This document shows positions 8,339 to 42,841 of a stretch of DNA of 64,000 nucleotides, one piece after another. Numbering within the stretch: the stretch's first letter is position 1; the number at the start of each line of letters is the position of its first letter. Below the pieces are notes generated by a model. It made no database searches. It was given only the letters and a program-made list of their open reading frames with translations, and was not told the DNA's origin. Made by a program: the position numbers and the translations under genes. The stretch comes from Candidatus Eiseniibacteriota bacterium (GTDB lineage: Bacteria > Eisenbacteria > RBG-16-71-46 > CAIMUX01 > WJJG01): positions 41,375 through 105,374 of the forward strand of contig DAOVQB010000001.1 in assembly GCA_030628905.1 (NCBI GenBank), written 5' to 3'.

Positions 8339-8367
8339 GGTAGCCGCCCGAATAGAAGAGGCTTCAG

Positions 8368-10172: not shown

Positions 10173-10248
10173 CAGCCGCACCAAGTGTATCGTATGGGAC
10201 GCTCAAGGGCGGAATATCCTATGCGCTGGGAGTACATAGCGAGTAAAC

Positions 10249-10746: not shown

Positions 10747-10798
10747 GGATGCACCTGAGCTAGCGGCCCGAATCGTATCCGGAGAAAGGCATGGCTGC

Positions 10799-12646: not shown

Positions 12647-12671
12647 GCGGGGGGGCGCCAGCGTGAACGTT

Positions 12672-13109
12672 TCACCGAATCGAGCCGCAGCAAGTGTATA
12701 TCCTCCACCAATCAGGCTCTTCGGGATTTCCTGTGGCTGAAGAGACCGCACATCCGAAAATGCGTACGGTTGCATCGTTGCAATCGAAGAATCCCTTTTT
12801 GTAAAGCAGCATTATGGCGTCATCGGTCGCCTCGTACAATGTGAGTAGCCGGCTTTCTGCTTTGTGCAGAGCCGTTTCCGCGCGCTCGACAGCAGCAACA
12901 TCCACGAAGCATTCGAGCAGACAGTCGCGTCCTTTCAGAGTTATTGGAAGCACCGACTTGAGGATGGAGATTTTATTCCCTAAAGAGCGCTCCGAAGACC
13001 TTACGCAAGAGAGAGGAACCCGTATGGTGAGGGGAATGAGATCGGCGCTAACTTCATTATGCTTGGCCCGGGGAGACATATGCTTGGCCCGGGGAGACAT
13101 GGTTCCCAA
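12672..13109 (-). pseudogene. PAS-domain fragment, probably a remnant of a sensor kinase, with a 21-bp tandem duplication near its 5' end
   Basis: The translation 'ERAETALHKAESRLLTLYEATDDAIMLLYKKGFFDCNDATVRIFG' is PAS-like. No kinase domain follows. The duplication is 'atgcttggcccggggagacat' x2 at 13059-13100. Confidence 0.3.
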
Positions 13110-13287
13110 AGAGGCTCAGTTCTTATTCCACGCCGACATGGCCTGCATCAGGTGGGCGGCCCTGCGTTGCGCTTCCGCGGTGGAGAGGTTGCCCTGCCAG
13201 TGAATCATCCACCCTGCAATCAGGCGGTGCACTTCACGTCAACTACCCCGCCATGCGCGCGGGTGAGGTACGCGGCGTGCATGGCCG

Positions 13288-16317: not shown

Positions 16318-18162
16318 CTATCGTAGTAGAATCATCCGGGTAGACTCAACCAATCCGCCATTGATCTTGATCCGGCAGAAGTAGGCCCCGGCGGGGAGCG
16401 CAGCACCGTTCTCGGAGCGGCCATCCCACTGGACTACATGATTGCCGGCAGCCTGCAGTCCGACAAGGAGCAAGCGTAGCAAGCGGCCCTGCAGGTCACA
16501 GATTGCAACTTCCACTTGCGCCTGCTCTGCCAGACGGAAATGTATCGCCGCTCCACGGGACCCCTCCGCGCACGGGTTTGGGACGCATCTCAAGAATCCT
16601 GCATTCTGCACTGCGAACAGATCCTCATCTGCAAGACCTCCGGACTCCACATACTCATCCGCGCCCATATCGGGAGTGACCGGATCCCGGAGATCGTAGT
16701 CTATGTCGGTTGTGATCCCCACGAGCGGGGTTCCTGCTTCGATGCATGCGCTACCGGATTCCAGGTGAAGATCCTCCATATTCAAGCCCGGATCCCCAGA
16801 AAGCGAATGCTCATCTCGTGGCGCATATCCAGGGGCAGCCAGCAAGTCAGCAAGTGTATTGTAGAGCTCAGTGCCGATCATGGCCACAAAGCGGTTATCC
16901 AAAGGCTCCTCGGAATTGACACTCAGGAAATTGTAATCGCTTTCGGCGAATGCATCGGCAGCGTTGATCCTCAAGGCGTAGTGCCCGTCATCAGGATCAC
17001 CACCAGTTCTCTCATTGAGGATGATGTTGTTCTTGAGTTCATGATCGGTGAGTTCCCGTGAAGATCTCAAGCAGTAAGACTTTGTTCCCCTCGTATCAAC
17101 TCCTCCCATGTAAAGCGTATTGTAGAGGAAACGGTTGTTTGTGCCGTCACCTGAAGATATGTTAAGGCAAACGCTGCTGTTAGCTGATATTCCAGGAAAC
17201 AGATAAACGATGTTGTCGTAAACAACATTGCCATCGGAATTCCCGTACAAGTAAATCCCTTTTGAGCCGGACAATTCACTGTGCCTAAGATCGTGGATGT
17301 AATTGTGGTGGATATTAGTGCCGCTGTTAGTTCCGCCGACACTTATGCCATAAACTGAACTGCGAGCCATCTCGAAGGTTTGATAGATCTGATTTCCCTC
17401 TATGTCACAATCAACAACATTCGCATCGAGCTTGATCCCCATCTTCTGCCAGTCCCGGATGGTGTTGCCCGCGATGCGGAAATCGCGAAGTTCCATGCCG
17501 GTGTCGCAGTCGAGGAAAACACCGAAGGTGGAGCCTCCAACGATTTCGCAGTTAGAGAGAATGAAGCTATCCATTCCGAGGGATGGCTGGGGTACTTGAT
17601 AAGTGGAGCAATAGACAGGGGTGGACCAACCACTATCGTAGGGTGGCTCGCTGATGCTGTGGATGATTAGATTGTCTAGGCTGCAGTTATCAGAACCGTT
17701 TGATAGCCAGAAGACGAATACATCATCATCGGCGTTGCGATAGCCGCTGACGGTCATGTTCCTGGTATCCTGAACGGATTCATGGGGGCTGCCATTGAAG
17801 GTGATATGGTCAGAATTGTGGATACGGAAGGCAGAACTGAACTCGCCGGTGATGGTTACGTTGATTGCTACGATAGCATCAACATCGGGGCGAAATACCA
17901 CTGGACTCTCCGAGGTGGCATCAACATCAGAAATGATCAGATTGTCGTTCTCTTCGTAGACGCCATCTCGAATCAGAAAGGTAACGCCGCCATCGCCAAC
18001 GCCCTGCGTGTTGAGGTCCGCGATCGCGTCTTCCAGGGTTGCGTAGTGGGGCGATACGCCGCCAATGTACTTGAGCCCTGTGAGTTGAGCCTCTGCATGG
18101 GGAGGCGCCAGAATGACACAGAAGAGTCCAGCCAACAGCAACGCAAGTCTCTGAATATTCAT
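16318..18162 (-). CDS. Secreted right-handed parallel beta-helix repeat protein with a C-terminal sorting domain
   Basis: A signal peptide 'MNIQRLALLLAGLFCVILAPPHAEA' is present. Repeated 'G.N.I.(H/D)N.I' beta-helix rungs occur, for example 'NIHHNYIHDL', 'GNVVYDNIVY'. The CTD is 'GAYFCRIKINGGLVESTRMILLR'. Confidence 0.7.
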   Translation of the reverse strand: MNIQRLALLLAGLFCVILAPPHAEAQLTGLKYIGGVSPHYATLEDAIADLNTQGVGDGGVTFLIRDGVYEENDNLIISDVDATSESPVVFRPDVDAIVAINVTITGEFSSAFRIHNSDHITFNGSPHESVQDTRNMTVSGYRNADDDVFVFWLSNGSDNCSLDNLIIHSISEPPYDSGWSTPVYCSTYQVPQPSLGMDSFILSNCEIVGGSTFGVFLDCDTGMELRDFRIAGNTIRDWQKMGIKLDANVVDCDIEGNQIYQTFEMARSSVYGISVGGTNSGTNIHHNYIHDLRHSELSGSKGIYLYGNSDGNVVYDNIVYLFPGISANSSVCLNISSGDGTNNRFLYNTLYMGGVDTRGTKSYCLRSSRELTDHELKNNIILNERTGGDPDDGHYALRINAADAFAESDYNFLSVNSEEPLDNRFVAMIGTELYNTLADLLAAPGYAPRDEHSLSGDPGLNMEDLHLESGSACIEAGTPLVGITTDIDYDLRDPVTPDMGADEYVESGGLADEDLFAVQNAGFLRCVPNPCAEGSRGAAIHFRLAEQAQVEVAICDLQGRLLRLLLVGLQAAGNHVVQWDGRSENGAALPAGAYFCRIKINGGLVESTRMILLR

Positions 18163-21451: not shown

Positions 21452-21607
21452 GGGGCCATTCTAGTATGCTTCGCCCGGGGAATCGAGGCTTGGAACGGCC
21501 AATCCTCTTGAGGAAGAGATATGGTATCATTAGTAGTTGGGTTGGCTGGTCATCCTGCATGGCTGGCGGTTCCACGGATCCAGGTCACACACCGAGGGGG
21601 AGCTGCG

Positions 21608-28701: not shown

Positions 28702-29691
28702 TCACGAGAACTCCACCCCGCACCTGTCGGCGATGCGCCGCGCCAGGACAAGAAAGTCCCTTTCGCAGTCGCGCACAGCCTGCATGTGCGCACCAATTGC
28801 GCGATCGGCAGGCTTCAGGTGAAACATCGGTTTGCGGGCCTCCATGGCGAGCGGCATCAGGCTGCGGTAATGCTTCAGCGTGGCTAGTTTCTGCTCATCC
28901 TGTTCCATGGCCGGCGCATCAGTTGCCCGGTCTCCAAGAACCGAGAACCGATACTCGCCGGGGATGCGATCCATCCAGCGCGAGTAGGCTTGTACCGGAC
29001 GGTCGAGCCGCACCGCGTGCTGTAGCACGACGTAGCCCGCGGGCTGCATCTCGCCCTTCGGTAGGTCCAACTCGGGTTCGGGGTTCTTGTCATAACGCTC
29101 TTGCCACTCCTCACGCCATTTGCGAAGCGTCGGGCCAAGGTTGCGAAGGCCCTGGAGGGAGAAGAGGTCGGGAGCCAAAGGAACCACCACGTGCTCGGCC
29201 GCGATGAGGGCAGCGCGGTTGATGGCGCCCAGGTTCGGGCCGACATCGATCAGGAGCAGATCCGCTTCGCGATCCATTACCGCCATAGCCATCAGACGGT
29301 GGAAGGCCGAAATGACGCGGAATGCGGCTACCTGCCGGTCAAGGCAGTTCGGCCACTCGCGCGAGAGCCGATCCTCGAAGGTGGACAGCCCCAGATCGCC
29401 GATAACGAGCCCCAAGTCATCGGCGATGTCTTCCACATGAGGTAGAGAGACGTCTCCAGTTCCGTCGAGCATCGGCTGTACGGCCCCCAGCACGGTATCG
29501 GGATGCTTTCCGTCCGGCCATAGATCCTCCAGCCGTTCCTCCGCGAGGAACATGGAGCTGAGGTTGGCCTGAGGGTCCAGATCGGCTGCCAGGACCCGGA
29601 CTCCACGGTTCGCGAACATCCATGCCAGGTGGTAGACGAGCGTGGTCTTGCCGACACCACCCTTATTATTGAACAAGGCGATGGTCGTCAT
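28702..29691 (-). CDS. ParA/MinD-superfamily P-loop ATPase with an extended C-terminal region of about 100 aa
   Basis: The deviant Walker A is 'NNKGGVGKTTLVYHLA'. 'ADLDPQANLS' and the Walker B region 'LLLIDVGPNLG' are present. The start ATG overlaps the stop of the upstream AlbA_2 gene (ATGA). Confidence 0.8.
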   Translation of the reverse strand: MTTIALFNNKGGVGKTTLVYHLAWMFANRGVRVLAADLDPQANLSSMFLAEERLEDLWPDGKHPDTVLGAVQPMLDGTGDVSLPHVEDIADDLGLVIGDLGLSTFEDRLSREWPNCLDRQVAAFRVISAFHRLMAMAVMDREADLLLIDVGPNLGAINRAALIAAEHVVVPLAPDLFSLQGLRNLGPTLRKWREEWQERYDKNPEPELDLPKGEMQPAGYVVLQHAVRLDRPVQAYSRWMDRIPGEYRFSVLGDRATDAPAMEQDEQKLATLKHYRSLMPLAMEARKPMFHLKPADRAIGAHMQAVRDCERDFLVLARRIADRCGVEFS

Positions 29692-30869
29692 GGGTGCCTC
29701 CGGATGGTCGTGAGCACTGCCGTGTCCTGGAAATCGAACTCGGGGGGCGGATTGCCATTGTCTGCAAGAGCCTTTCTCGCCATTGGGATGCCCACACCGA
29801 AGCGTTGGATATACCCGAGCACGGCCAGGGCTTCAGCGACGAGGGGATTGCGGTAGTCCGTGACCCCTGTACCGAAGTTCTCCGGCGTAACCTGGCCGTA
29901 TAACCCGCCGGGGCTGTGGATCTCCACTCGGTCGGAAAACCAGTAGACATGCACGGGCGCGTTGCTCGTCTCGTAGTTGCGGTGGACCAGGGCGTTGCGA
30001 ACAAGTTGCTGCAATGCAACGGCCGCATAGTCTGGCTGCCGCTTCTCGCGCGCACCCGAAGTGATATCGGTCGCGACTGAGATGTTCAAATCGATAAGAT
30101 CATCAAGCTGTCGCGCAACCTCGTTCAAGGGGCCAACAAGGCGCTTCTGATGCTTGATTGGATCAGCCAGCTCCGTACCGTCGATGCCAAGAAACTGGAT
30201 ATACGCACTTGGAATCCAGCGGAGAGGGTCTCTCCCCGCCACGAGCACGGCACCATAGCATGGTGTCTCGCCGGTGATGAGTCGAAGTGAGGCAAGCTGC
30301 TGCTTGACGTGCCAGTCGTTCGCTGTCAGGACCTCTTCTGCGAATGCGGAGGGCAAATACTCCCGCTGTAGAAAATTGAGGTCGAGGTCGTCGAGCGTGG
30401 CGTCGAGGGCCCGCCGGCGATCGAAAGGAAGATCCGCCGCGCGCCGTCGCTCGATGAGACGCCGCTCATTGTCGGGCGTTGCTTCACGCGTGCTCGGCCC
30501 CACACGTACCCAGCAACGACCCTGGTAGCGAACAGGTGGGTCGCGCGAGGGGTCCACCTGGACAATCGCCACTTTGCAGCCATCGAGAACTCGCTGGTCG
30601 ACTTCCATCGAGGGAATCGGGAGAATCCCACTGTTGCGCATGTCAGCCAGAAGTTTCAGAAGGTCATCATCGATCTCGATGTTCGCACAGGTTCCGTCAT
30701 TCTCGACGCCGACAAAGACAATGCCCGGTTTGCCATCACCGGGAAGATCATTCGCGAACGCACAAATCGCCTTGCGGATAGCGCTGCGGTCCCCTGCAGT
30801 CCGCTTCCGCTCAGCACTTGGCGATTCCAGGTCCTTCAACAGATCGAGAAGTCGGGCATCGTCAAGCAT
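29688..30869 (-). CDS. AlbA_2 (Schlafen-like 'divergent AAA') plus HATPase_c_4 two-domain protein, a COG2865-type putative transcriptional regulator/ATP-binding protein
   Basis: The N-terminus is 'LLDLLKDLESPSAERKRT...IRKAICAFANDLPGDGKPGIVFVGVENDGT' (AlbA_2). The C-terminus is 'LQQLVRNALVHRNYETSNAPVHVYWFSDRVEIHSPGGL' (HATPase_c_4 / RecG-C-like). Confidence 0.75.
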   Translation of the reverse strand: MLDDARLLDLLKDLESPSAERKRTAGDRSAIRKAICAFANDLPGDGKPGIVFVGVENDGTCANIEIDDDLLKLLADMRNSGILPIPSMEVDQRVLDGCKVAIVQVDPSRDPPVRYQGRCWVRVGPSTREATPDNERRLIERRRAADLPFDRRRALDATLDDLDLNFLQREYLPSAFAEEVLTANDWHVKQQLASLRLITGETPCYGAVLVAGRDPLRWIPSAYIQFLGIDGTELADPIKHQKRLVGPLNEVARQLDDLIDLNISVATDITSGAREKRQPDYAAVALQQLVRNALVHRNYETSNAPVHVYWFSDRVEIHSPGGLYGQVTPENFGTGVTDYRNPLVAEALAVLGYIQRFGVGIPMARKALADNGNPPPEFDFQDTAVLTTIRRHP

Positions 30870-31257: not shown

Positions 31258-34200
31258 TCAGCGCAGAAACAGCATGCGTTGGCACTGTTGCCGGCCGTCG
31301 GCTTCCAGCACATAGAAATAGACACCGCTGCCCACATGGCGGGCGCCAGCATCGCGGCCGTTCCAGCTACACAGGTGTTGCCCGCGCGGCATGGGGCCGT
31401 GGATCAATGTGCGCAGGAGACGTCCATTGGCATCGAAAACCTGCAGGCGTACGTTCGACGGTCTGGGTAGGTCGAATCGGATGCGTGCACAGGCATCTTC
31501 TGTGCCGAATGGGTTTGGACTGCTCTGGTGCAGCGCCAGGCAGGTAGGTAGCGCGGATGTGTCCCCAACCCCGGCAGCGCCGGGCGTGGAAGTGAAGACT
31601 TGTACATCATCGATGTACCAGCCATCTCCGAAGGCGGCATAGTCGCTCCCGAAACGGAAGCGTAGTTGCACCGTGCCCGTTACGCCCTCGATTGAGAAGC
31701 AGGCTTCCTGCCAGTCGAATGTGCCAGAGTAGAACGGCAACTCGGATGGGAAGGGCCCCGGCCCCTGCGGACGGTTGCGCACGAGGTTCGGATAACCGCC
31801 GACCGGTGAGATGTGTGTCCAGTCGCCGCCATCCACGGATATCTCGATTAGGCCTCCGTCATAGCCATAGGGTGGATACCAGGCACTGTCCTCCGCGTCC
31901 ATCCAGTGCCAGAAGGTCAATTCGCTGTTGCCCGCGAGCGGGAAGGGTTCGCTCACCAGGGCGCCGTCGGCGAAGGGCTCGTAATCACCGCCACTGTCAT
32001 CGCCGAATTTCCAGGCCCAGTTGCCGCCCGGTGTATGGTTCTCCTCCTCTGACAGATGCCATTGGTCCACGAAATCCTCCGTGACCACGTAGTGCGTCCA
32101 GGCGCCGGTCCCGCCTTCCATATCATCCGTGAAGAGCACTGGAAGAATCCAGAAGGCATAGATCTCCTCCGGCGGGTTGGGAGGATCGGTTGAGGCATTG
32201 CCGCCCACGTCGCGACCGCTGAGGTAGTAGTGGACCAAGGTGGTGTAGGGCTGGCCGGGAATGGAAGCCTTGTAGATGTTATCCCCCTGCTCCTCCAGCG
32301 GAATCGTCATCCATCCGCTGCCATTTGCGTTGTAGATCAGTGAGAGCTCTTCGAAATCTGAGTATTCAATGACGGTGGAGTAGATGTCATAGGGCCCTTG
32401 TGTGTCGGGGGTACTCGGGTAGTCAGTCGTTGCGCTGAAGGTTGGCGGCAGGGTGTCCTGGAGTGCGAAATTGATATTCGTCGCTTGCTCTTCGGCGATG
32501 ACAACCGCCCAGGCTGTGTCAGGGGCGAAGCTGGGATGCCGCGCGACTACCGTGTAGGTTCCCACCAGGACGCCGCCGCTATAGATCCCGTTCGAAGCGG
32601 CCGTCAACTGCTCACCGCTTTCAAGAAGATGGACAGTGGCCTGCCCCAAAGGAGTGCCACCGTTGGTATCGTTGGTGATCATCCCGGCGAGAGTTCCTCT
32701 CGGCTGGCAGGTGAGTGTGAGGAACTTGATGGCCCGTCCGCTTTGGATGAGTCTCCCGCCTGCGTTGTAGTAACCATAGTAGCTGTACATCAAGCCGTCG
32801 GTTTGATCTCCATTCTCGATTCCGACCGTACAGTAGTGCTGGATATGGTCGCTGTTGTTGAAGGTATCGTACTGGAAGAGGATGACGCCGTCACCGGTAG
32901 GAGTTGGGTAGTGGATCGGATCGTAGAGGATAGCCTCGAAATTCTGAACGGTGTTGCCTAGACGGTTTTTCACGCGGGCCCATTGAACAATGTAGCGGTG
33001 GTTGTCGGCGTCAAACCAATGATAGACCGTGTTGCTTCCGGAGGGATAGAGATCGTCCCACATGGGTGCGATCATGTAGTTGGGTGCACCGGCTGCCGGG
33101 ATGTTCCAATTGCGGCGATTGGTCAAGTATGTTGAGCCCATGGCCATCCATCCATTCGAGCAGATCGTGGCGCGCGTGAATGTCTCGCCGTAGTAAGTGA
33201 ATGGGAACGGCAGATCGATCGTCTCTGATTTTTCGTCTGTCATCGCCAGGGAGCTCCCGCTGCCCCCGTGGTTGGGATCGAGCTCGATCCATTCATAGGT
33301 GGGTGCTTGAGGGAAGGCGAGATCGGTATCGTCGAAGGCATAGTAGCCATAGGCGTCCGCTCCTGTCGGATCGTCCGCGTTTGGAGTGCCGATAGGCAAG
33401 GCCAAGTGGACCGTGTCCGTGAGCCCGCTGGAGAACTGCAGGGCGAGCACCATGGGAGCGATATGGCCGTTATAGCAGTAATTGGAAACAGTCAGGCCGA
33501 AGCGGTCTGCCGTGTTTTCCCCCACTGAATCCGCAGGGATTATCCCAAAGGATCCGTATCCATCGTCGACCGTCACCCACGGACTTTCGGAAATCAGGGC
33601 TCCGGTAACGCTGCTGGCTCCCGCACCGCCGAGGTTCAGGATCCGCACACTGATCTCCCCAGTCTCTCCCGGATCGATAGTGTCGCCAAAGCCCCATAGA
33701 GTAACGCCGTCGCAAGCGAAGTCGGCCGAAACAACTTGGATTTCGAGGAGTGCATGCCAGCTATCAGCCCCCGACTGCAGCTCCAGTCCCAAACGGATCA
33801 GGTGGCCATGTGGCGCGGCCGGGTCGATATGAATGTCGAAATCATCCTCGCTCCAGGCCGTTTCGCCACTGGGGATGTCACCGAAGGCTTCGGTGGCGTC
33901 GAGAATCGTGGTGTAGGGGTCGCCCGCAGCGGTGAGGGTGCCGGTTACTTCCGTGGCGACTTGAGTGCCGAAGTTCTCGACCAGCACCGGGATCTCAATC
34001 GTCTCGCCTGGATTGGGCACGTGGTCGCGGTTCCCGTTGCTGGATCCGAGCGTGTCATCGTCGATCAGATGTGTGTTGTAGGCGACATGTCTTTCGTGCT
34101 GCGTCACATTGATGGCTGCCAGATAGGGGTGGTGATCATGCTTGGTCACAGTGAGCTTCATCTCGCCCTCGGAGGGCGTGGTGACTGGCAGCTCGATAGA

Positions 34201-36363
34201 GCCGTCGGCGCAGGTGTATCCTCCCACGTGCGTGCATCCCTCCATCCAAAGGCAGACATATGCCTCCTCGCAGGGGAGACCATCGGCCGTGACGTGAATC
34301 GTCACGGTATTCGTTCCGATGGGGAGTTGTGTGGGGTGATCAACCTCGATGGCCTGCGGAACAGCGGTCCAGAGCTCGCCAGCCGAATCGCCCATCAGGT
34401 TGTTCCAATGTGAATAGGTTCGTACAGCCCCCATGTTGGCTTCAGCATAGTTGACATAAAGTTCGTACTTGGCGCGCGTTAGGGCAGCGCCGAAGTGAAA
34501 CATGTTTTCCCAGAAGATGCCCCGCCAAATGCCATAGACCACACAGTTGTTGTAGCGGGTGTGCGTGCCCGTTGTTGCGGTTCCGATACTGGCAATGCCC
34601 CCGGTCGGAGTGTTGGGGGGTACGCCGGCGCGGATCCATGCCTCGCTGCGCGCCAGGCCCTGGTTGAAGGAACCGGTGTCACAGGTAAGATTGACCGCGA
34701 AGGGCATCTTCCAGCCGTTTTGCAAGGCCAGGATGTGTCCCGTGCTGAAGCCGCTCATGTTGTAATAGCCGCGGTAGCTGAAGACAGTGTCGCCGCGATT
34801 AATGCAGTTGCGGATGCCACTGACCCAGGGCGATGTGAAAACAGTGTCAATATCTGCGTAGCCGTAGGAGCTAAGTCGCGTCTTGAGCCACTGCGCGATT
34901 TGAATGCAGGTATATCCGGAATAGGAGGGGTCGCCCACGAGACATGCGCGCGTATACCAATCCGTCTCCGCCATATAGGGAGTGCTTTCATAGCCAACGA
35001 TCTTGGTGACATAAAGCTGCAGGCCATCGACCGAGTCGACGGAGATGCGGCCGATGTGGGCATCGGGGAGCAGATCGTCTCCATCGAGCTTGACATAGGG
35101 GTGGTCGGCCGATCCGCCTCCGTAGAGCCAACAGGGGATCGATATATCGCCATTGGCATCTCCGATAAGTGTGATGTATTCAGGCGGGTTGTCCCAAGTT
35201 GCATAGGCGAACCTGAGCCAGTCTTGAATGTCTTCCTTGCTTGCTCCGGTCTCCGTGGTCGTTACCAGGTGGACTTCGTAGCCCTTGCGTGCACGCCATT
35301 CAACGAGCGGTTCGAGGGCGGCAAGGATTTCGGGGTCATCCGGACAGATGATGACATAGGTTCCCAGGGAGACGACTTGAGCGTTGCGAGAGCCCGTATG
35401 GCTGCAAGAACCCGTATAGTTAACGACCAAGTTGCGGTAGAGCTGATCAAAGGAAGAGGAGAGGACCGGATGAATGCGGGGCGCGCTGTTGCGCACGTCT
35501 TGGCCGGAGAATGTGATCTGGATCTGGATGCGCGTGGCGACCTCGAGGGTTTCTCGGGCAGGGTCATAGCGGACCGGGTGGATGGTGATCGGCACCACCC
35601 GCAGGCCGCGTGCGATTGCCGGGTCCCCCAGGTGCGCCCACTGCGCTGGATGATCGGCCGCAGGAGCATCGGCAGCATAGGCATTGCGATTGATGACGAA
35701 GCCTGATGCCTCATCGGGCTGTACTGGTAGGGGCCGGAAACCGGCAACCTCTGTTGTCTCTAGGCTCACAATCTCAAGGTGGGCGGCAACGCAAGCGGGG
35801 ATCTCAATCAGCCGGGAGAAGGACGGAAGCATCGGTGCACCCACCTGACCGGTGAAACCGCCACCCCCGATCTCCAGGATGGGGAAGCTCCCGGCCTCGA
35901 TCTGCAGGACGTGAAAGGTCTCGCCCGCGATCTCCAGTGGGAGGGCATGTAGGGAGGGCAGCTCGAACTCGAGCACAAGACCCTCTTCTATCGAACCAAG
36001 CGTGTGAATGGAGGGCGTCTCCTGCCGACTTGAAGCCCTGGAGAGAAGTGCAAGTTCCCTGTACTTGGGAGCGGCAGTAACGCGAGGGACAGTTGGGACG
36101 CAGGGCGCGAGCTGCTGCCGCAAGGCGCTTGCAAGCAGCGTCGGGATCTTGGATCCGCCCGGGTCAGTGACCATGGAGTCAGCGTGCGGTGAAGTACCAG
36201 CGTTCACGGACGACCCGCCGGATGCAAGGGTTGTGGTCGTCAGTATGGCAATGGCAAGGGGCGTCAGGCGCCGATGCATGTGTTCCTCCCGAGCGGAAGT
36301 GACCTGGGCCAAAAGGGGGGGAGCAGAAGCCCAGCATGAGCCAAGGCAACCGATTTCATACAA
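31258..36363 (-). CDS. Giant (1701 aa) secreted peptidase C25 (gingipain-like) multidomain protein with a C-terminal sorting domain
   Basis: The signal peptide is 'MHRRLTPLAIAILTTTTLASGGSSVNA'. The C25 core carries 'YITLIGDANGD...GRISVDS', 'YRGYYNMSGFSTGH' (His region) and 'AVNLTCDTGSF' (Cys region). Multiple beta-sandwich-like domains follow. The CTD is 'GVYFYVLEADGRQQCQRMLFLR'. Confidence 0.8.
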   Translation of the reverse strand: MYEIGCLGSCWASAPPLLAQVTSAREEHMHRRLTPLAIAILTTTTLASGGSSVNAGTSPHADSMVTDPGGSKIPTLLASALRQQLAPCVPTVPRVTAAPKYRELALLSRASSRQETPSIHTLGSIEEGLVLEFELPSLHALPLEIAGETFHVLQIEAGSFPILEIGGGGFTGQVGAPMLPSFSRLIEIPACVAAHLEIVSLETTEVAGFRPLPVQPDEASGFVINRNAYAADAPAADHPAQWAHLGDPAIARGLRVVPITIHPVRYDPARETLEVATRIQIQITFSGQDVRNSAPRIHPVLSSSFDQLYRNLVVNYTGSCSHTGSRNAQVVSLGTYVIICPDDPEILAALEPLVEWRARKGYEVHLVTTTETGASKEDIQDWLRFAYATWDNPPEYITLIGDANGDISIPCWLYGGGSADHPYVKLDGDDLLPDAHIGRISVDSVDGLQLYVTKIVGYESTPYMAETDWYTRACLVGDPSYSGYTCIQIAQWLKTRLSSYGYADIDTVFTSPWVSGIRNCINRGDTVFSYRGYYNMSGFSTGHILALQNGWKMPFAVNLTCDTGSFNQGLARSEAWIRAGVPPNTPTGGIASIGTATTGTHTRYNNCVVYGIWRGIFWENMFHFGAALTRAKYELYVNYAEANMGAVRTYSHWNNLMGDSAGELWTAVPQAIEVDHPTQLPIGTNTVTIHVTADGLPCEEAYVCLWMEGCTHVGGYTCADGSIELPVTTPSEGEMKLTVTKHDHHPYLAAINVTQHERHVAYNTHLIDDDTLGSSNGNRDHVPNPGETIEIPVLVENFGTQVATEVTGTLTAAGDPYTTILDATEAFGDIPSGETAWSEDDFDIHIDPAAPHGHLIRLGLELQSGADSWHALLEIQVVSADFACDGVTLWGFGDTIDPGETGEISVRILNLGGAGASSVTGALISESPWVTVDDGYGSFGIIPADSVGENTADRFGLTVSNYCYNGHIAPMVLALQFSSGLTDTVHLALPIGTPNADDPTGADAYGYYAFDDTDLAFPQAPTYEWIELDPNHGGSGSSLAMTDEKSETIDLPFPFTYYGETFTRATICSNGWMAMGSTYLTNRRNWNIPAAGAPNYMIAPMWDDLYPSGSNTVYHWFDADNHRYIVQWARVKNRLGNTVQNFEAILYDPIHYPTPTGDGVILFQYDTFNNSDHIQHYCTVGIENGDQTDGLMYSYYGYYNAGGRLIQSGRAIKFLTLTCQPRGTLAGMITNDTNGGTPLGQATVHLLESGEQLTAASNGIYSGGVLVGTYTVVARHPSFAPDTAWAVVIAEEQATNINFALQDTLPPTFSATTDYPSTPDTQGPYDIYSTVIEYSDFEELSLIYNANGSGWMTIPLEEQGDNIYKASIPGQPYTTLVHYYLSGRDVGGNASTDPPNPPEEIYAFWILPVLFTDDMEGGTGAWTHYVVTEDFVDQWHLSEEENHTPGGNWAWKFGDDSGGDYEPFADGALVSEPFPLAGNSELTFWHWMDAEDSAWYPPYGYDGGLIEISVDGGDWTHISPVGGYPNLVRNRPQGPGPFPSELPFYSGTFDWQEACFSIEGVTGTVQLRFRFGSDYAAFGDGWYIDDVQVFTSTPGAAGVGDTSALPTCLALHQSSPNPFGTEDACARIRFDLPRPSNVRLQVFDANGRLLRTLIHGPMPRGQHLCSWNGRDAGARHVGSGVYFYVLEADGRQQCQRMLFLR

Positions 36364-36469: not shown

Positions 36470-37363
36470 TCAGCGCGACGATTGTCGGCGTTTCGGCGGC
36501 TTGCGCTTGGGTGGCGGTGGCTTCGGATGTGATTTGGCCAACCTCAGTGGCGGCTTCGTGACATGTGGATGGTGGCGCTGATGCCAGATACTGCGCGCCA
36601 ACCGGGGGTGCTGGCCCAGGTAGATACGCCGGGCCCAGACGATCTTGTGAATGCGCGCGTTGCGAGCGGCCCGCAGTTTGTAGGCCCACGAGGCTTTCCA
36701 GAGGCGAGCTCGCGGGTTGTACCAACGCCAGTGGAGATAGAGGCTGCGTGCAAAACGAGGGTGGATCCGCAGATGGTGATAGACCCGCCACCAGGCACGA
36801 TAGAGTGGCGGGTGCGCGGCAAGATAACCCACATAGGCAATCATGACCGGATCGGAACCGGTGTAGGTCGGTTCTACTTCCTCCGCAAAGAGCGCCTCAG
36901 CTTCCTCGGGGTGGCCCTCGAGATAGGCCATCGCCTCTCCATGCGTATCAAGAAGGGATTCGTCCTCTCCGGCCAGACGTTCCACTTCCTCGACTCGCTC
37001 GGCGAAATCGGGGTCGGCCGCCATAAGGCTGTCGAGGGCAGCCATGTGGGTCTCGGCATCAGCTTCCTCTGCGGCCGCTTCATCCAGCTCCGTCTGCCGC
37101 TCCAATAGGACCGGATCTTTCTCGTAGGCCTTGTTCAGAGAAGTCTCCTGCTCGGCGAATTCGGGGTTCGCTTCCAGGGAATCCTCCTCGGCGGGCGAAC
37201 TGGCAGAATCCGAGTAGCAGGCCGCCGGCAGTAGGGCCACTAGCAAGGCCGCCGGCAGTAGGGCCACTAGCAAGGCCGCTGGCAGTAGGGCCACTAGCAA
37301 GGCCGCTGGCCGTAGGACCACCATGATTCCGTGCCTCATTATAATCTCCATCATGATTTTCAT
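36470..37363 (-). CDS. Putative lipoprotein with a tandemly repeated signal-region (LLVALLPAA x3-4), an acidic central region and a basic Trp/Arg/His-rich C-terminus
   Basis: An SD-like 'gggaaag' lies before the ATG at 37363. The lipobox-like sequence is 'LLPAAC'. A 27-bp x ~3.7 DNA repeat sits at 37221-37325. The C-terminus has repeated 'HPR(F/L)ARS' units and a 'KPPPPKRKPPKRR' tail. Confidence 0.5.
   Translation of the reverse strand: MKIMMEIIMRHGIMVVLRPAALLVALLPAALLVALLPAALLVALLPAACYSDSASSPAEEDSLEANPEFAEQETSLNKAYEKDPVLLERQTELDEAAAEEADAETHMAALDSLMAADPDFAERVEEVERLAGEDESLLDTHGEAMAYLEGHPEEAEALFAEEVEPTYTGSDPVMIAYVGYLAAHPPLYRAWWRVYHHLRIHPRFARSLYLHWRWYNPRARLWKASWAYKLRAARNARIHKIVWARRIYLGQHPRLARSIWHQRHHPHVTKPPLRLAKSHPKPPPPKRKPPKRRQSSR
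37221..37325 (-). repeat. 27-bp tandem repeat x ~3.7 within the lipoprotein signal-peptide coding region
   Basis: Direct reading of the DNA: gccgccggcagtagggccactagcaag and variants. Confidence 0.85.
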
Positions 37364-37581
37364 CGTCTTTCCCTGCCAGACTGGAGCCACAGGCGCCCCT
37401 GGAATGTGAAGCCCCCCCCTTGCGGGGTCACCTCTGGTATCGGCCGGCTCTGAGTGCACGATTACGGTGGAGTCCATTGCGGTGCCACTTTTGCGCATGC
37501 ATGGTCGAGCAACGAGTGGTAGTTTCTTTACGGGGTGCCGTGGACTGGGAAATGGGCATCCTTCCTGAAGTTGGAGGTCTC

Positions 37582-39300
37582 ATGATTCGACTCAAGATCC
37601 CTGCACTGTTGATCTGCCTATTTGCTCTCACCCAAGCAGTGGCCCAAACGTCGGAGGCATCGGTCAATCTGCTGGATGTGATGAGTGCAGAACTCGACCG
37701 CTCCATGGAGAATCTGGCCGAGGCATCTGAAGTCCCCATGTATTACCTGCAGTACGCGGTCACGGAGAGGTGCGCCTATGACGTTAGCGTGCAGAATGGG
37801 GGATTCCGTGAACCCCATAGATCGCATCGACGCTATCTGGACGTCAATCTGCGGGTCGGGTCCATGGAATTGGACAATACGCATGAGATCCGCGGGGGGA
37901 GCTGGCGCGACAACTATGCGCCGCGGAGGATGGTTGACTTCCCATTGGACGCAGATCCCCAGAGTATCCGCGCCGCGCTGTGGAACGAGACCGAGTATCA
38001 ATACCGCCAGGCGCAGGAACGCTTCACCAAGGTGCTGAACAACCGGCGAGTAAAAGTAGAGGAGCAGGATCTCTCTAATGACTTCTCTCCCGCCCAGCCG
38101 CAGCAATTCATGGAGCCGGTTGTGGTGACAGAGATCGATGCGGCCCATTGGCGCGGCATCCTGGAGCGTGTGGGCCGCTACCTTGCAGATGTCCCCTTCG
38201 CCCGCACGTCGCGCGCATCCTTCTCGGCCATTGACAAGATCACCTACATGGTCAATAGCGAGGGCTGCAGGCTCCAGCACTTGAATCACTACCTCCGCTT
38301 TTCGTTCTCGATCAGCGGCATGGCTCAAGACGGGATGATCCTCGACCGCTTACAGTCCTATGCCGCAGTCGCGGTGGAGAACCTGCCTGACGAAGCGACC
38401 GTGCTGCAGGATGCCAGACGACTCGTTGCTGAACTCGAGGCCCTGATCGATGCGCCGATTGTAGAGCCATATATCGGTCCCGCGATCCTGCGTGGTCGGG
38501 CGAGCGGCGTCTTCTTCCACGAGATCTTTGGCCATCGGATCGAAAGCCACCGGCAGAAGAGCGAGAACGAGGGCCAGACCTTCACGAAGAAGGTCGGGGA
38601 GCAGATTCTACCAGAGTTCATCAGTGTTTATGACGATGCCACCCTAGCGCAGTTCGAGGGTACCGACCTCAGAGGTTACTATAAGTTTGACGATGAGGGT
38701 ACGCTGGCCGAGCGAGTCACCGTGGTAGAAAAAGGCATCCTGAAGAGCTTTCTGACAACACGCTCCCCGATCGAGAACTTCCCGCGCAGCAACGGCCACG
38801 CCCGGCGGCAAGCGGGTTATAGTGTGGTTGCGCGCCAGGGGAATCTGATCGTGCAGTCCGAGAAGAGCGTGCCTTATGAGGAACTGCGTGCGCTGCTGAT
38901 TGCGGAATGCAAGCAACAGGGCAAGCCGTACGGACTGATCTTCGATGACATCTCCGGTGGGTTCACGATGACCGGCCGCCGGGGCCCGCAGGCCTTCAAG
39001 GTCAAACCACTCCTCGTCTACCGTGTCCATGCCGACGGCAGGCCCGACGAGGTCGTGCGCGGGGTGGATATCGTCGGCACTCCGCTCACGAGCTTTAGCA
39101 AGATTCTGATGGCGGCGCGGGATGATGCTGTCTTCAACGGAACCTGTGGGGCGGAGTCGGGCGGCGTACCGGTCTCAGCGATATCACCGAGCCTTCTCGT
39201 AGCTGAGATCGAGGTGGAGAAGCGTCGGAAGGGTCAGGATAGACCACCTATCTTGCCTCCTCCCGGACACAGTGGTGAGCAGGAAAGGCGGATGCCATGA
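37582..39300 (+). CDS. TldD-family (peptidase U62) metalloprotease with an N-terminal signal peptide
   Basis: The signal is 'MIRLKIPALLICLFALTQAVAQ' with an SD 'ggaggt' upstream. The TldD zinc motif is 'GVFFHEIFGHRIESH' (HExxxH). The C-terminal Gly-rich TldD/PmbA core is 'DDISGGF'. Confidence 0.75.
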   Translation: MIRLKIPALLICLFALTQAVAQTSEASVNLLDVMSAELDRSMENLAEASEVPMYYLQYAVTERCAYDVSVQNGGFREPHRSHRRYLDVNLRVGSMELDNTHEIRGGSWRDNYAPRRMVDFPLDADPQSIRAALWNETEYQYRQAQERFTKVLNNRRVKVEEQDLSNDFSPAQPQQFMEPVVVTEIDAAHWRGILERVGRYLADVPFARTSRASFSAIDKITYMVNSEGCRLQHLNHYLRFSFSISGMAQDGMILDRLQSYAAVAVENLPDEATVLQDARRLVAELEALIDAPIVEPYIGPAILRGRASGVFFHEIFGHRIESHRQKSENEGQTFTKKVGEQILPEFISVYDDATLAQFEGTDLRGYYKFDDEGTLAERVTVVEKGILKSFLTTRSPIENFPRSNGHARRQAGYSVVARQGNLIVQSEKSVPYEELRALLIAECKQQGKPYGLIFDDISGGFTMTGRRGPQAFKVKPLLVYRVHADGRPDEVVRGVDIVGTPLTSFSKILMAARDDAVFNGTCGAESGGVPVSAISPSLLVAEIEVEKRRKGQDRPPILPPPGHSGEQERRMP

Positions 39301-41021
39301 TGAAGACAAGTATGCGAATCCTCTGGCTGCAGATCGCCTTTCTGACCCTTGCGCCTATTGCGATAGGTCACGATTCGGGCGATCCCGTTTTTGAGGCCAT
39401 GGAACTCGAGCTCGACCGCTCCATGGACCAGCTCGTTCTGGGGGGCATGTCGCAACCCTATTTCCTCGGCTATCGGATCCAGGATAGTCAGATGGTAATG
39501 GTGGAGGCGAGATATGGCGCCCTTGTGCAGGCCGAGAGCAACAGGAATCGATATCTCTACATCGACCTCAAAGTGGGCGCTCCGAACTTTGACAACAGCG
39601 GATTCATCGGCAATTGGAGTGATGTGTATAACATGCGCGAAGAGCTTCCCGTGGAAGATGATATCAGGAGTTTGCGCCATCACATCTGGCTTCACACCGA
39701 TCATGCTTACAAGACCGCGCTGGAGAACATGGCGCGCAAGCAGGCGTATCTACAAACCCATCCGGCGAAGGAGGAAATTCCAGATTTCGCGGCGGCTAAC
39801 GGATTCGTCCATATGGATGAACCGGTTGGCTTGGATGTGGATCTGGGGCTCTGTGAGTCGAGAGTCCGTGCCGCGGCCCAAGCCCTGCGGGAGTTCCCGG
39901 GCTTGCAGGATTGGAACGTTCGCTACACGCACGGGGCGGCCAATAACCGCTACCTGAATTCGGAAGGGATCTGCTATCTGAAGGGGATTCAGTTCCAATA
40001 CCTCTTGGTTGCTGCCACCGCGCAAGCACCGGATGGTCAGCGCCTAAGCCATTTTCTGCAGTACGCGCTGAGCAGCGATGACGAATTGCCAGCGCAGGAG
40101 GTCCTGATTGAAGATATCCGCACCATGGCCGGCGAGCTGCAGGCCATGATTGCCGCGCCAACGCTGGATGAGTATGCGGGACCTGTACTGTTCGACGGTT
40201 TCGCTGCGGCGCAGCTGCTCTCCCAGCTATTCGTCAACCAGCTTTCCCCAGCGAGAGAGCCATTGGTCGCGGAGGATTGGATGAAGCAGTACCTGCCCGA
40301 TCCCAAGCTCACCGGGAGACTCAATCGCCGGGTCTTGGCGGACTTCGTGGTGATTACAGACGAACCGAGCCTGAAGAAATGGGAGGGACGCTCTTGCGCC
40401 GGACATCAGAAGGTGGATGACGAGGGTGTGAGATGCCAGGACATCACGCTCGTCAAGGGAGGGCGGCTTCTTGCGCTCCCGATGACGCGCCGCCCGAGCA
40501 AGAAACTGAAGGAATCGAACGGACATGCGCGGATGCTACCCAATCAGATGATCGTGCCTGGGATCACCAACCTGGTGCTTCGAGGTGAGCAGACGAAGAA
40601 GGACCTGCGCAATGAACTCAGGCGGCTGTGCAAGGAGTTTGGCAATGAATATGGCCTGCTGATCACACGACTGGAGGATCCGGAGGTCACACAGCGCTAT
40701 CGGCGGATAGAGCCGGGGCGTGAGGAGCAGGACCTGCTGACGGCCCCGGTGGTCATGTACCGGATCTACGCGGAGGACGGGCGCATGGAACCTGTGCGAG
40801 GTCTGGGGTTCGATGAGGCATCGGTCCGCGCGCTGCGGGATGTGGCTGCGGTGGGCCAGGATGCGAAGGGCACCAACCTCAGGCAACCAAGCGGATTCCG
40901 GGGTCTCTCCTATCCGGCAACGATCATCACTCCCTCGATCCTAATCGAGGAGATGGAGTTCACTGACGCCATCGTGCGCGAACCGCTTCCGCTGAGCGGT
41001 ATTCCGATCATCGAGCAGTAG
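39297..41021 (+). CDS. TldE/PmbA-like partner of the TldD-family protein (lacks HExxxH), with a signal peptide. Its start overlaps the TldD-like stop.
   Basis: It is a paralog of the upstream gene with the same overall length and fold pattern. The signal is 'MMKTSMRILWLQIAFLTLAPIAIG'. There is no metal-binding HExxxH, as in PmbA. Confidence 0.7.
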   Translation: MMKTSMRILWLQIAFLTLAPIAIGHDSGDPVFEAMELELDRSMDQLVLGGMSQPYFLGYRIQDSQMVMVEARYGALVQAESNRNRYLYIDLKVGAPNFDNSGFIGNWSDVYNMREELPVEDDIRSLRHHIWLHTDHAYKTALENMARKQAYLQTHPAKEEIPDFAAANGFVHMDEPVGLDVDLGLCESRVRAAAQALREFPGLQDWNVRYTHGAANNRYLNSEGICYLKGIQFQYLLVAATAQAPDGQRLSHFLQYALSSDDELPAQEVLIEDIRTMAGELQAMIAAPTLDEYAGPVLFDGFAAAQLLSQLFVNQLSPAREPLVAEDWMKQYLPDPKLTGRLNRRVLADFVVITDEPSLKKWEGRSCAGHQKVDDEGVRCQDITLVKGGRLLALPMTRRPSKKLKESNGHARMLPNQMIVPGITNLVLRGEQTKKDLRNELRRLCKEFGNEYGLLITRLEDPEVTQRYRRIEPGREEQDLLTAPVVMYRIYAEDGRMEPVRGLGFDEASVRALRDVAAVGQDAKGTNLRQPSGFRGLSYPATIITPSILIEEMEFTDAIVREPLPLSGIPIIEQ

Positions 41022-41030
41022 GGGACCTGC

Positions 41031-41170
41031 AAGTCTGGCGCCTGGACCACGCGCCTGGCGTCTGGACAGCAAGCCTAGCGCCCGGATCGCGAGCCTAGCG
41101 TCTGGACAGCAAGCCTGGAATCCAGACAGCAAACCTGGCATCTGGATGGCAAGCTCGGTCTGGAGCTGGT
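41031..41170. repeat. Imperfect ~20-bp tandem repeat array (cYRgcRtcYggaYRgcaRRc) x6-7, intergenic between the TldE-like gene and tatA
   Basis: Direct reading of the DNA. Confidence 0.8.
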
Positions 41171-41270
41171 CCTCCAGTCCATGATAGTGTACCCTGCAGT
41201 TGGATGCGCAGCCCCTGAGGGAGGTGTCCGGATACCTCGCCACGGCTGGCGGGCTGCAAGGAGGTAGCGA

Positions 41271-41504
41271 ATGGAATGGAAGATTCCCACACTCTTCTTC
41301 GGCTCACTCGGGATTCAAGAGATTCTGGTAGTGCTGGTGATTCTACTGCTGCTCTTTGGCGGTAGGAAGATCCCCGAGCTGGCGCGAGGACTGGGCCGCG
41401 GGATCACTGAGTTCAAACGAGGGATTCACGAGCCTCCGGAGAAGGATCCCGAAGCACTCCCGACGGAGACAACGCGTTCAAACCACGACACAAAGGATAC
41501 CTAG
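41271..41504 (+). CDS. tatA: Twin-arginine translocase subunit TatA/E
   Basis: A TM helix plus amphipathic helix reads '[39 protein letters not shown]', the TatA consensus. Confidence 0.8.
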
Positions 41505-41632
41505 GTCCGCAATTTCCCACCAACGATCCACTGCCCCGTGCGTATCTGCATGCCCTCACCATCGTCATACGCGTCCCACTGAGCCCCAAAGGTAACCGAG
41601 GAGCCGAGGCGGGGTCTGGTGAGAAGTCCGCC

Positions 41633-42841
41633 CTAAACGAGTGCGGAGCAAAGCACCTTGCGCACCGCCAGGATCACATCCTCCACATCCCGATTGCTCA
41701 AACCCGGCGAAAGCGGAAGCGAAAGCGTACGTTCTCCCACCCACTCGGCATTCGGGAAATCCCCCTCCCCGTAACCGTAGCGCTCGCGGTAGTAGGGGTG
41801 GAGGTGCAGGGCACGGTAATGGACGCCAGTGCCGATGCCCTCTGCGTGAAGCGCTTGGAGCACCTGGTCCCGGCTGATGCGCAGCTGATCCAGATCGAGC
41901 AAGATGATGAAGAGATGCCGTGCGTGGCGATCTCCTTGCGCTGGCTCCGGCGGAATCCGGAGCGGCAGATCCGACAGGCCCTCTGTGTACCGGCGCCAAA
42001 TTTCATCCCGGCGCTTCAGATTCGCCTCGACGCGGGCCAGCTGGTGGATCCCGAGGGCGGCTTGCATATCCGTCATGTTGTACTTGAATCCTGGGAATGT
42101 CACCTCATAGTGCCGGAAGCCTTCGTCCGAGTAGCGCTTCCATGCATCCCGCGAGAGCCCGTGAAGGCCGGCCACCTTGATCCAGTCGGCGATCTGGGGA
42201 TCATCGGTACTTACCATCCCACCTTCGCCGGTGATGACATTCTTGGTTACATAGAAGCTGAAGACCGTGCAATCGCTGATGCTGCCGATCTTGCGTCCCT
42301 GGTGGGCGGCTTCAATGGCATGGGCGGCATCCTCCACGATACGCAGCTTCCGGTCGCGAGCCAGCGCCTGGAGCGCTGTCATGTCTGCCGTCCGCCCAGC
42401 GAAGTGCACGGGGAGTAGCGCGCGTGTGCGCTGGGTCATCTTCTCGCTGGCGCGCTCCGCATCGATACAGAGCGTCTCGCGATCGCAGTCTGCAAAGACC
42501 GGCGTGGCGCCAAGGTGTGTGATGACATTGGCCGTCGAGGCAAAGGTCATCGGGCAAGTGATCACCTCATCACCTGGCTTGACCCCGATTGCGATCATTG
42601 AGAGGTGCAGTCCTGCCGTGCAGGAATTGAGTGCCATGGCGTAGCGCGAGCCCACGTACTCACAGAAGGCTTTCTCAAAGGCAGCTACGCGGGGGCCGGT
42701 GCCCAGCCAGCCGGAGCGGATGGTGGCCTCCACCTCCCGGATTTCCTCTTCGCGGATGTCCGGCTTCCCAAAGATGAGGTACTCGGTCCGCACAGGCCGG
42801 CCACCATCGATCGCCAGTCTCGCGCTGCCATCGTCTGCCAT
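41633..42841 (-). CDS. DegT/DnrJ/EryC1/StrS-family PLP-dependent sugar aminotransferase
   Basis: The translation 'LIFGKPDIREEEIREVEATIRSGWLGTGPRVAAFEKAFCEYVGSRYAMALNSCTAGLHLSMIAIGVKPGDEVI' matches the family, and the Lys-containing 'FSFYVTKNV' is present. The start is taken as the internal Met. The ORF is open up to 42937. Confidence 0.85.
   Translation of the reverse strand: MADDGSARLAIDGGRPVRTEYLIFGKPDIREEEIREVEATIRSGWLGTGPRVAAFEKAFCEYVGSRYAMALNSCTAGLHLSMIAIGVKPGDEVITCPMTFASTANVITHLGATPVFADCDRETLCIDAERASEKMTQRTRALLPVHFAGRTADMTALQALARDRKLRIVEDAAHAIEAAHQGRKIGSISDCTVFSFYVTKNVITGEGGMVSTDDPQIADWIKVAGLHGLSRDAWKRYSDEGFRHYEVTFPGFKYNMTDMQAALGIHQLARVEANLKRRDEIWRRYTEGLSDLPLRIPPEPAQGDRHARHLFIILLDLDQLRISRDQVLQALHAEGIGTGVHYRALHLHPYYRERYGYGEGDFPNAEWVGERTLSLPLSPGLSNRDVEDVILAVRKVLCSALV

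Follow-up and report, generated by a model that had tools for sequence, protein, structure and literature searches.

We analysed a 64,000-nucleotide stretch of DNA (64 kb, hereafter the window) from the metagenome-assembled genome of a Candidatus Eiseniibacteriota bacterium, contig DAOVQB010000001.1, and focused on two overlapping genes at its positions 37582-41021, here called ORF-A and ORF-B (open reading frames A and B). ORF-A (37582-39300, plus strand, 572-amino-acid precursor) is predicted to encode an exported catalytic TldD-like subunit, as indicated by Pfam, phmmer, AlphaFold2 and Foldseek, and ORF-B (39297-41021, plus strand, 574-amino-acid precursor) an exported, catalytically dead TldE-like partner, as indicated by Pfam, hhalign, AlphaFold2 and Foldseek. 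That the pair is TldD/TldE-like in identity and architecture (MEROPS family M103) seems to us very probable. With more modest confidence, we propose that the two proteins probably work together in the periplasm, shredding unfolded peptides. In the literature TldD/TldE is a cytoplasmic protease, known for the maturation of microcin B17 and the turnover of CcdA. An initial annotation of the window had given the coordinates and a description of the pair, both of which proved correct, and had linked it to the maturation of sorted secreted proteins, an idea that is taken up below together with the neighbouring genes.

Fold and active site of the predicted subunits

Both products match the Pfam model PF19289 (PmbA_TldD_3rd), with E-values of 2.2e-27 for ORF-A and 4.5e-19 for ORF-B. 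This C-terminal domain is the only Pfam model of the TldD/PmbA family that they match, since the N-terminal and middle domain models find neither protein. Neither protein comes near the equivalog cut-offs that NCBIfam sets for TldD and PmbA (NF008006, NF008268): ORF-A scores 44.8 bits against the 513 required for TldD, and ORF-A and ORF-B score 20.7 and 15.1 bits, respectively, against the PmbA cut-off of 438 bits. Judged by these scores, ORF-A and ORF-B are members of the TldD/TldE superfamily and not same-function orthologs of E. coli TldD and PmbA.

The metal site of ORF-A was located by a phmmer alignment with E. coli TldD (5nj5_A, E-value 3.9e-13), in which HEIFGH lies over HEAVGH and GTCGAESG over vCGkeG. 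In E. coli TldD the metal is bound by H262, H267 and C454, and E263 is the catalytic residue (PMC5810440); residues H313, E314, H318 and C522 of ORF-A align on H262, E263, H267 and C454, and E321 is the counterpart of E270. The HEIFGH zinc motif of ORF-A (amino acids 313-318, aligned on H262-H267, with H313, E314 and H318) is encoded at 38518-38535, and the codon of Cys522, the predicted third metal ligand within GTCGAESG, at 39145-39147, both on the plus strand. All five residues, H313, E314, H318, E321 and C522, are invariant across 74 homologs.

The translation of ORF-B contains no HExxxH. Compared with the ORF-A family by hhalign, ORF-B is an end-to-end paralog (probability 100, 25% identity over 557 columns, score 538), and at the position of the motif it reads S-Q-L-F-V-N, with H313, E314 and H318 replaced by S, Q and N; the Cys ligand is gone as well, and the consensus of the B family at this position is AAAQFISQLF..QL. 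ORF-A is the predicted catalytic subunit of the pair and ORF-B its predicted dead partner, lacking the three ligands and the catalytic Glu. The initial annotation had likewise assigned the HExxxH motif to the first gene, as TldD-like, and its absence to the second, as PmbA/TldE-like, and had called this the canonical heterodimer arrangement. The combination of a catalytic and a dead subunit does agree with that description; for the linkage of the genes the term needs caution, since tldD and tldE are unlinked in E. coli, whereas in the exported family the genes overlap or are fused.

Structure prediction points the same way. The AlphaFold2 models have predicted local distance difference test (pLDDT) scores of 85.8 for ORF-A and 92.1 for ORF-B, and in a Foldseek search of the PDB all 16 significant matches were TldD, TldE or PmbA, with E-values from 1e-19 to 1e-30 and target-normalised template modelling (TM) scores of 0.67-0.76. 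The best match of the ORF-A model is TldD (5njf_A, E-value 7.8e-30, TM 0.76), and the ORF-B model matches TldD (5njf_C, 2.1e-25) about as well as Pseudomonas aeruginosa PmbA (3qtd_A, 4.0e-25, TM 0.76). When sequences are used to search the PDB, neither ORF-B alone nor a 21-sequence profile of B homologs finds TldD or TldE. By hhalign the ORF-B family scores 55.1 against E. coli TldE, 46.7 against E. coli TldD and 538 against the A family, the E. coli proteins being the sole canonical sequences compared, and with these values orthology of ORF-B to TldE cannot be shown. Thus the comparison with E. coli TldD and TldE that the initial annotation had suggested as a check gives a matching fold for both proteins and matching metal ligands for ORF-A. 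It is possible that an independent duplication into A and B took place inside the exported clade.

Some further segments are conserved in these proteins. Amino acids 97-113 of ORF-A (window positions ~37870-37920) carry a near-invariant LDNTHEIRGGxWRDNY, which is modelled at lower confidence, and the equivalent position of ORF-B reads LDNSNFxGxWxD. The two families also have conserved Pro-rich C-terminal tails, KGQEKPPILPPP in ORF-A and EPLPxSxNPxF in ORF-B, which are absent from the canonical E. coli subunits.

Signal peptides and start sites

Each precursor begins with a predicted signal peptide for the general secretory (Sec) pathway. In ORF-A this comprises amino acids 1-21 (MIRLKIPALLICLFALTQAVA, followed by QT; 37582-37644, plus strand), with the charged n-region MIRLK, a hydrophobic core and an AXA site, AVA/QT, where the slash marks the predicted cleavage. 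In ORF-B it comprises amino acids 1-24 (MMKTSMRILWLQIAFLTLAPIAIG, followed by HD; 39297-39368, plus strand), with MMKTSMR, a hydrophobic core and AIG/HD. These calls were made with a simple heuristic of charge and hydrophobicity, not with SignalP, and the same heuristic is passed by 100 of 106 A homologs and by 91 of 100 B homologs. Across many phyla the N-terminus of the homologs varies in sequence and keeps its character, and the signal segment stops just ahead of a conserved start of the mature protein, LLDVMQ.EL.RS in A and DDPVF.AM.DEL.RS in B. The AlphaFold2 model of ORF-A has a helix at residues 5-22, a low-confidence linker and a fold that begins at about amino acid 29; that of ORF-B has a helix at residues 2-17, outside the fold, and a stretch of low pLDDT at 19-26. 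Moreover, natural fusions of A and B into a single chain keep the A signal and drop the B signal, resuming at the mature-B start DDPVF.AM.DEL (P0003, P0004); the junction in P0004 reads ...KPPILALPERGDDEQPADDPVFQAMEDEL....

Other export routes and surface signals were sought in the same proteins. The consensus for export by twin-arginine translocation (Tat), [ST]RRx[FGAVML][LITMVF], is absent from all 112 A homologs and present in one B homolog of 113; the two window proteins have no RR. A lipobox ([LVI][ASTVI][GAS]C) was found in one of 112 A homologs, and the 113 B homologs and the two window proteins have none; no C-terminal sorting domain (Por_Secre_tail or FlgD_ig-like) was found in ORF-A or ORF-B by Pfam or NCBIfam. 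The simplest reading of these predicted signals is Sec export, cleavage by signal peptidase I and a periplasmic location of both products. The initial annotation had predicted export of the pair from signal peptides on both paralogs, which agrees with the layout of the N-termini, with the conservation of Sec-type signals in about 90% of the homologs of both families, with the AlphaFold2 models and with the fusion junctions.

As the same annotation had recognised, mis-called starts would undermine this prediction. In that case the hydrophobic N-termini would be an artefact and the proteins ordinary cytoplasmic TldD/PmbA, and indeed a longer reading frame does open upstream of ORF-A at TTG 37420. 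This start was rejected, having no counterpart in homologs. A Shine-Dalgarno-like GGAGG (37573-37577, plus strand), read from the sequence, lies 4 nucleotides before the ATG at 37582, and the same products of 572 and 574 amino acids are called in three independent assemblies of the same organism. Furthermore, more than 200 homologs were compared, of which about 90% have hydrophobic N-termini of varying sequence; the fusions retain exactly one hydrophobic N-terminal segment; and both proteins score far under the equivalog cut-offs given above for TldD and PmbA (NCBIfam). Taken with this evidence, an artefact of this kind has a negligible chance of being the explanation.

The stop codon of ORF-A overlaps the start codon of ORF-B in an ATGA at 39297-39300 (plus strand), read from the sequence, in accordance with the translational coupling described before. 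ORF-A encodes a protein 100% identical to P0001, which NCBI names 'peptidase U62 [Candidatus Eisenbacteria sp.]', and the database names of its relatives are generic, for example 'metallopeptidase TldD-related protein'. A scan of positions 37200-41650, including the gap between ORF-B and the downstream tatA, gave no promoter or terminator consensus, and such a scan is uninformative for this phylum.

Pairing, fusions and distribution

The pair belongs to a large family. When 1.84 billion cluster representatives were searched exhaustively, 1,122 clusters (50% identity) were returned at E<=1e-30, and a scan for the sequence pattern, in one genome per species, gave at least 588 matching stretches. 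Among the matches listed, the carriers include Acidobacteriota, Planctomycetota, Elusimicrobiota, Verrucomicrobiota, Myxococcota, Ignavibacteria/Kapabacteria, Calditrichota, Cyanobacteria/Melainabacteria, Eremiobacterota and others, and identity of A to the window protein is typically 45-68%. Between phyla, the ORF-A family keeps 45-50% identity. A scan of metagenomes yielded mostly short contigs and added little synteny.

In 113 of the 122 loci with room for B, a B gene comes after A on the same strand, with a median projected gap of ~5 nucleotides (113 loci) from the stop of A to the start of B. Across many phyla it is as this ordered pair that the genes are inherited. Of the best 150 cluster representatives, 57 are single-chain A-B fusions, 1,006-1,338 amino acids long; examples are P0240, P0241, P0246 and P0259 (~1,100 amino acids; among P0240-P0388). 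Each of the 57 has exactly one HExxxH, always in the N-terminal half. The N-terminus of the fusions is hydrophobic in 51 of 57, and a hydrophobic stretch at the junction was seen in 6 of 52. Because the fusions keep one signal and one HExxxH, they provide strong indirect evidence that the predicted A and B proteins form one complex and are exported together.

Variants of this organisation were also observed. P0280 (875 amino acids) has an N-terminal extension of ~310 amino acids before the A domain, and locus L073, from an Oculatellaceae cyanobacterium, contains two head-to-head A-B pairs, at 5451-8911 (minus strand) and 10001-13590 (plus strand), the second A being 41% identical to the window protein.

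Relation to known TldD/TldE proteins

The fold, the active site and the pairing of an active with a dead subunit are those of a known family. E. coli TldD/TldE (PmbA; M103, PDB 5NJ5) shares the whole-chain fold with the window proteins (Foldseek E-values 1e-23 to 1e-30, TM 0.67-0.76) and likewise has one subunit with HExxxH and a distal Cys and another without the ligands; by analogy, the closed-chamber mechanism would be the same. There are also clear differences. The signal segment has no aligned counterpart in the E. coli proteins, whereas ORF-A and ORF-B carry predicted Sec signals. The window precursors are ~90-125 amino acids longer than E. coli TldD (481 amino acids) and TldE (450 amino acids), and for ORF-A the extra length over TldD consists of the signal peptide, ~35 amino acids in the N-terminal domain and the Pro-rich C-terminal tail of ~23 amino acids. 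In the structural alignment ORF-A and E. coli TldD are 18-19% identical, and K456 and D272 of TldD become A524 and H323 in ORF-A. The likeness between A and B (25% identity, hhalign score 538) is far above that of either to TldD or TldE (scores 47-104).

Among NCBIfam models, the best match of ORF-A is archaeal TldD (NF040952; 70 bits, 1.5e-19), over the catalytic C-terminal half, at a score far under the cut-off of 635 bits. Archaeal TldD is described as cytoplasmic and, according to a claim by Hu et al. 2012 as discussed in PMC5810440, forms an active homodimer, in contrast to the exported family, in which a dead paralog is nearly always the partner. The same fold is found in structures deposited as 'putative modulator of DNA gyrase', namely TM0727 (1VL4), BT3649 (1VPB), P. 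aeruginosa PmbA (3QTD) and Thermococcus kodakarensis TldE (6J6A), and for ORF-B the matches to 3QTD and 1VL4 are of about the same quality as that to TldD. All four are ~430-445 amino acids long, at 11-17% identity, and none has a described exported function.

For a periplasmic enzyme of this kind, a functional analogue exists in E. coli. Pitrilysin (protease III, PtrA; M16), a zinc peptidase of the periplasm, takes small unfolded peptides into an enclosing chamber, a task like the one proposed for the A/B pair. The analogy is functional only: its fold is unrelated, its motif is the inverted HxxEH and it is a single chain of two homologous halves. No likeness to it in sequence or structure was found, nor was one looked for.

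Neighbouring genes and the cargo-maturation hypothesis

On the minus strand at 31258-36363 lies a gene for a 1701-amino-acid C25 peptidase with a propeptide, a CarboxypepD_reg domain and a C-terminal domain of FlgD_ig type, similar to those of the type IX secretion system (T9SS). This neighbour, present as the initial annotation had reported, is 1.2 kb upstream of the pair and divergent from it. It underlies the idea of cargo maturation, in which the pair would trim or clear propeptides or C-terminal sorting domains of cargo such as C25, in connection with the secretion and sorting machinery and tatA. In favour of such a role, C25 is the only neighbour family in the window that recurs beyond this organism, and a C25 gene of similar architecture stands directly upstream of the pair in locus L003 (41% identical to the window C25) and in L145 (29%). 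The recurrence is confined to close relatives, and the C25 gene is best described as a lineage-restricted neighbour.

The strength of this association was assessed in loci with at least 8 kb of flank, counting C25, M6 or C10 peptidases within 10 kb and binning by identity of A to the window protein; the tblastn protease queries were drawn from this clade and distant proteases may be missed. At 60% identity or more, 8 of 12 loci have a protease (6 of them C25). The linkage that the initial annotation had asked to see conserved is therefore present among close relatives, and it fades quickly beyond them: at 50-60% identity a single locus of 14 has a protease and 13 have none, and below 50% there is none in 69. 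The proteases themselves vary. Around the pair of L003 there are three C25 genes; L145 has, besides its C25, an M6 peptidase 27 nucleotides downstream; the pair of L147 lies between an M6 peptidase (upstream) and an M3 peptidase (downstream); a C10 peptidase is found near that of L146; and in L086 there is an S8 peptidase that bears a C-terminal sorting domain. No C25 stands beside the pair in L085, the closest relative (76% identical), nor in L001, L086, L146 and L147, and no protease was found near the pair in L085 or L001. Neighbours with C25 or sorting C-terminal domains (CTDs) were not detected in Acidobacteriota, Planctomycetota, Elusimicrobiota or Cyanobacteria, where the family abounds. 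L085 (3640-5418) and L086 (6717-8453), both with no C25 neighbour, share a gene for an aldehyde:ferredoxin oxidoreductase (AFOR) upstream of the pair.

We consider it improbable that the pair is a protease maturase, because the module is far wider than its protease neighbours, because ORF-A and ORF-B have no CTD or sorting domain and because TldD/E chambers take unfolded peptide ends only and cut them without sequence preference, which fits folded cargo poorly (PMC10885120, PMC5810440). The proposed link to cargo maturation thus loses its ground with the closest relative and with all 69 loci below 50% identity.

The tatA gene (41271-41504, plus strand; TIGR01411, 57.7 bits) does lie 250 nucleotides 3' of ORF-B, as had been pointed out, but as a meaningful link this adjacency fails. 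It is incidental, because tatA is found beside the pair in this organism only, which also fits signals that are of Sec and not of Tat type. Much of the 250 nucleotides between the stop of ORF-B and tatA is occupied by a 20-nucleotide unit, GCAAGCCTGGCGTCTGGACA, repeated ~6.3 times at 41029-41154 (69% match; alternatively with a 40-nucleotide period).

Several other genes of the window were considered as conserved partners and rejected together with tatA, namely the divergent repeat ORF, the DegT aminotransferase and GNAT/FemAB-like genes that lie downstream of the pair on the opposite strand, and a PpiD-like gene; all of them recur near the pair in the same organism only. The divergent ORF (36470-37498, minus strand, 284-342 amino acids) has no Pfam or NCBIfam match and contains a 27-nucleotide tandem repeat in four copies (37215-37321, 95% match), encoding LLVALLPAA units in its hydrophobic N-terminus. 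It had been described as a divergent, repeat-containing lipoprotein: orientation and repeat are as stated, but a lipoprotein is doubtful, as its LPAAC does not fit the lipobox [LVI][ASTVI][GAS]C.

Three proteins with a FlgD_ig C-terminal domain are encoded in the 64 kb, at 16318-18162 (minus strand), 21521-24478 (plus strand) and 31258-36363 (minus strand), including a protease with S8, CarboxypepD_reg and MAM domains and the C25 protease, which points to a genome rich in sorted secreted proteins. Islands of secreted proteases tend to surround the pair in this lineage, and this fits a shared part in protein foraging and not their maturation. Beside the C25 gene there is also an overlapping gene pair, encoding a ParA/MinD-like ATPase (AAA_31; 28702-29691, minus strand) and a Schlafen AlbA_2 protein with HATPase_c_4 (29688-30869, minus strand), which could be a defence or mobile-element module.

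Proposed role of the pair

According to the mechanism that we propose, both precursors would be exported by Sec and cleaved by signal peptidase I, and the mature proteins, of ~550 amino acids each, would assemble in the periplasm into a pseudo-symmetric shell like that of TldD/TldE. The zinc site of A would lie inside the enclosed chamber, which B would close. Only unfolded peptide ends could thread in, and cuts would be made stepwise and with little sequence preference, as by E. coli TldD/E, whose chamber is closed, whose substrates are exclusively unfolded and whose cleavage is independent of sequence (PMC10885120, PMC5810440). The most likely job of such a complex would be to break unfolded oligopeptides, imported or derived from turnover of the envelope, to short pieces for uptake. 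By analogy with the E. coli enzyme, a general periplasmic role in peptide degradation has in our estimate an even chance of being correct. More speculatively, in the Eisenbacteria-like lineage the pair might act as a second stage of protein foraging beside large endopeptidases of the C25, M6, C10 and S8 families; this coupling to secreted endopeptidases is put forward tentatively and we would not bet on it.

It must be taken into account that several points weigh against periplasmic shredding as the role of the pair. The physiological substrate is assigned by analogy, and our literature search found no study of an exported TldD/E. All-against-all clustering of the flanking ORFs of 90 loci gave lineage-specific groups only (a response regulator, LptF/G, menaquinone genes, a CDF transporter and a TonB-type barrel), and beyond the pairing of A with B the neighbours are lineage-specific and uninformative on the substrate. 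The adjacency to proteases is a plain count over the flanks of related loci, and the background density is high, the 64-kb window being itself dense in FlgD_ig proteins. The remaining points concern the chemistry and the location of the complex. N-deacetylases of TldD/TldE type have been reported, to go by the title of Vobruba et al. 2022, as cited in PMC10885120, and the two proteins may each keep their N-terminal helix as an anchor.

The first of these would have the exported pair work as an amidase or N-deacetylase, with a non-peptide amide of the envelope as its substrate, in lipopolysaccharide, peptidoglycan or glycan intermediates. Some of the neighbours would suit it. A gene for a fused LptF/LptG permease (~780 amino acids) directly follows ORF-B on the same strand in 14 loci, mostly of Bryobacteraceae (L027, L037, L039, L040 at ~13.4-15.7 kb, L043-L045, L048, L050, L054, L056, L058, L069 and L083), and in the window the DegT aminotransferase and GNAT/FemAB-like genes stand downstream. 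These envelope-gene neighbours are, however, lineage-specific, those of the window recurring in the same organism only, there is no glycan-pathway gene among the conserved neighbours, and motif and fold match the peptidase TldD best. An amidase therefore appears improbable to us.

If the signals were uncleaved anchors, the complex would be held at the inner membrane, on its outer face, and each precursor does have one N-terminal hydrophobic helix as this would require. On the other hand, AXA-type sites follow the hydrophobic core in ORF-A and ORF-B, the cores are short (~12-16 residues), as is typical of cleaved signals, and the helix of B is dispensable in the fusions, so that we give such tethering a low probability.

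A narrower task has also to be weighed, in which the pair would mature or inactivate a specific secreted peptide, for instance a ribosomally synthesised and post-translationally modified peptide (RiPP), a bacteriocin or a signalling peptide, in the manner of the removal of the microcin B17 leader. The precedent is good, for RiPP leaders are removed by TldD/E in E. coli, Klebsiella and Yersinia (PMC10885120). Nevertheless, in ~120 loci no precursor peptide, modification enzyme or exporter recurs beside the pair, and a housekeeping role fits better with an A protein that is 45-50% identical between phyla. A dedicated peptide maturase is, in our view, very unlikely.

Implications

Periplasmic shredding by the exported pair thus continues to be the role that we favour. 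TldD/PmbA annotations that bear a signal occur in other phyla too, and export as such can probably already be seen in databases. The pair differs from the known family in its predicted compartment, its larger subunits with Pro-rich tails, frequent fusion, the high conservation of A and possibly a separate origin of the dead partner. If that partner arose by a duplication of its own, independent of the split between TldD and TldE, it may represent convergent evolution of a pseudoenzyme partner. A broader view, which we hold to be plausible although unlikely, is that these proteins are a distinct and ancient clade of envelope M103 peptidases, encoded by two genes or fused, with a dead partner that was perhaps separately duplicated, and serving as a core periplasmic shredder in soil and sediment phyla.

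The interest of the locus does not lie in the idea of C25 cargo maturation. What emerges is a large predicted exported branch of TldD/TldE, whose 1,122 clusters come with several hundred species representatives from many phyla, and a catalytic subunit so unusually conserved between phyla that it points to an envelope function under strong constraint. The single-chain fusions are ready-made constructs for structural work and enzymology, and since culturable bacteria such as Bryobacteraceae, Phycisphaera and Melioribacter are among the carriers, the function is directly testable. If true, a periplasmic shredder in abundant phyla of soils and sediments (Acidobacteriota, Planctomycetota, Elusimicrobiota, Eisenbacteria and others) would be an unrecognised step in the environmental turnover of peptides and nitrogen.

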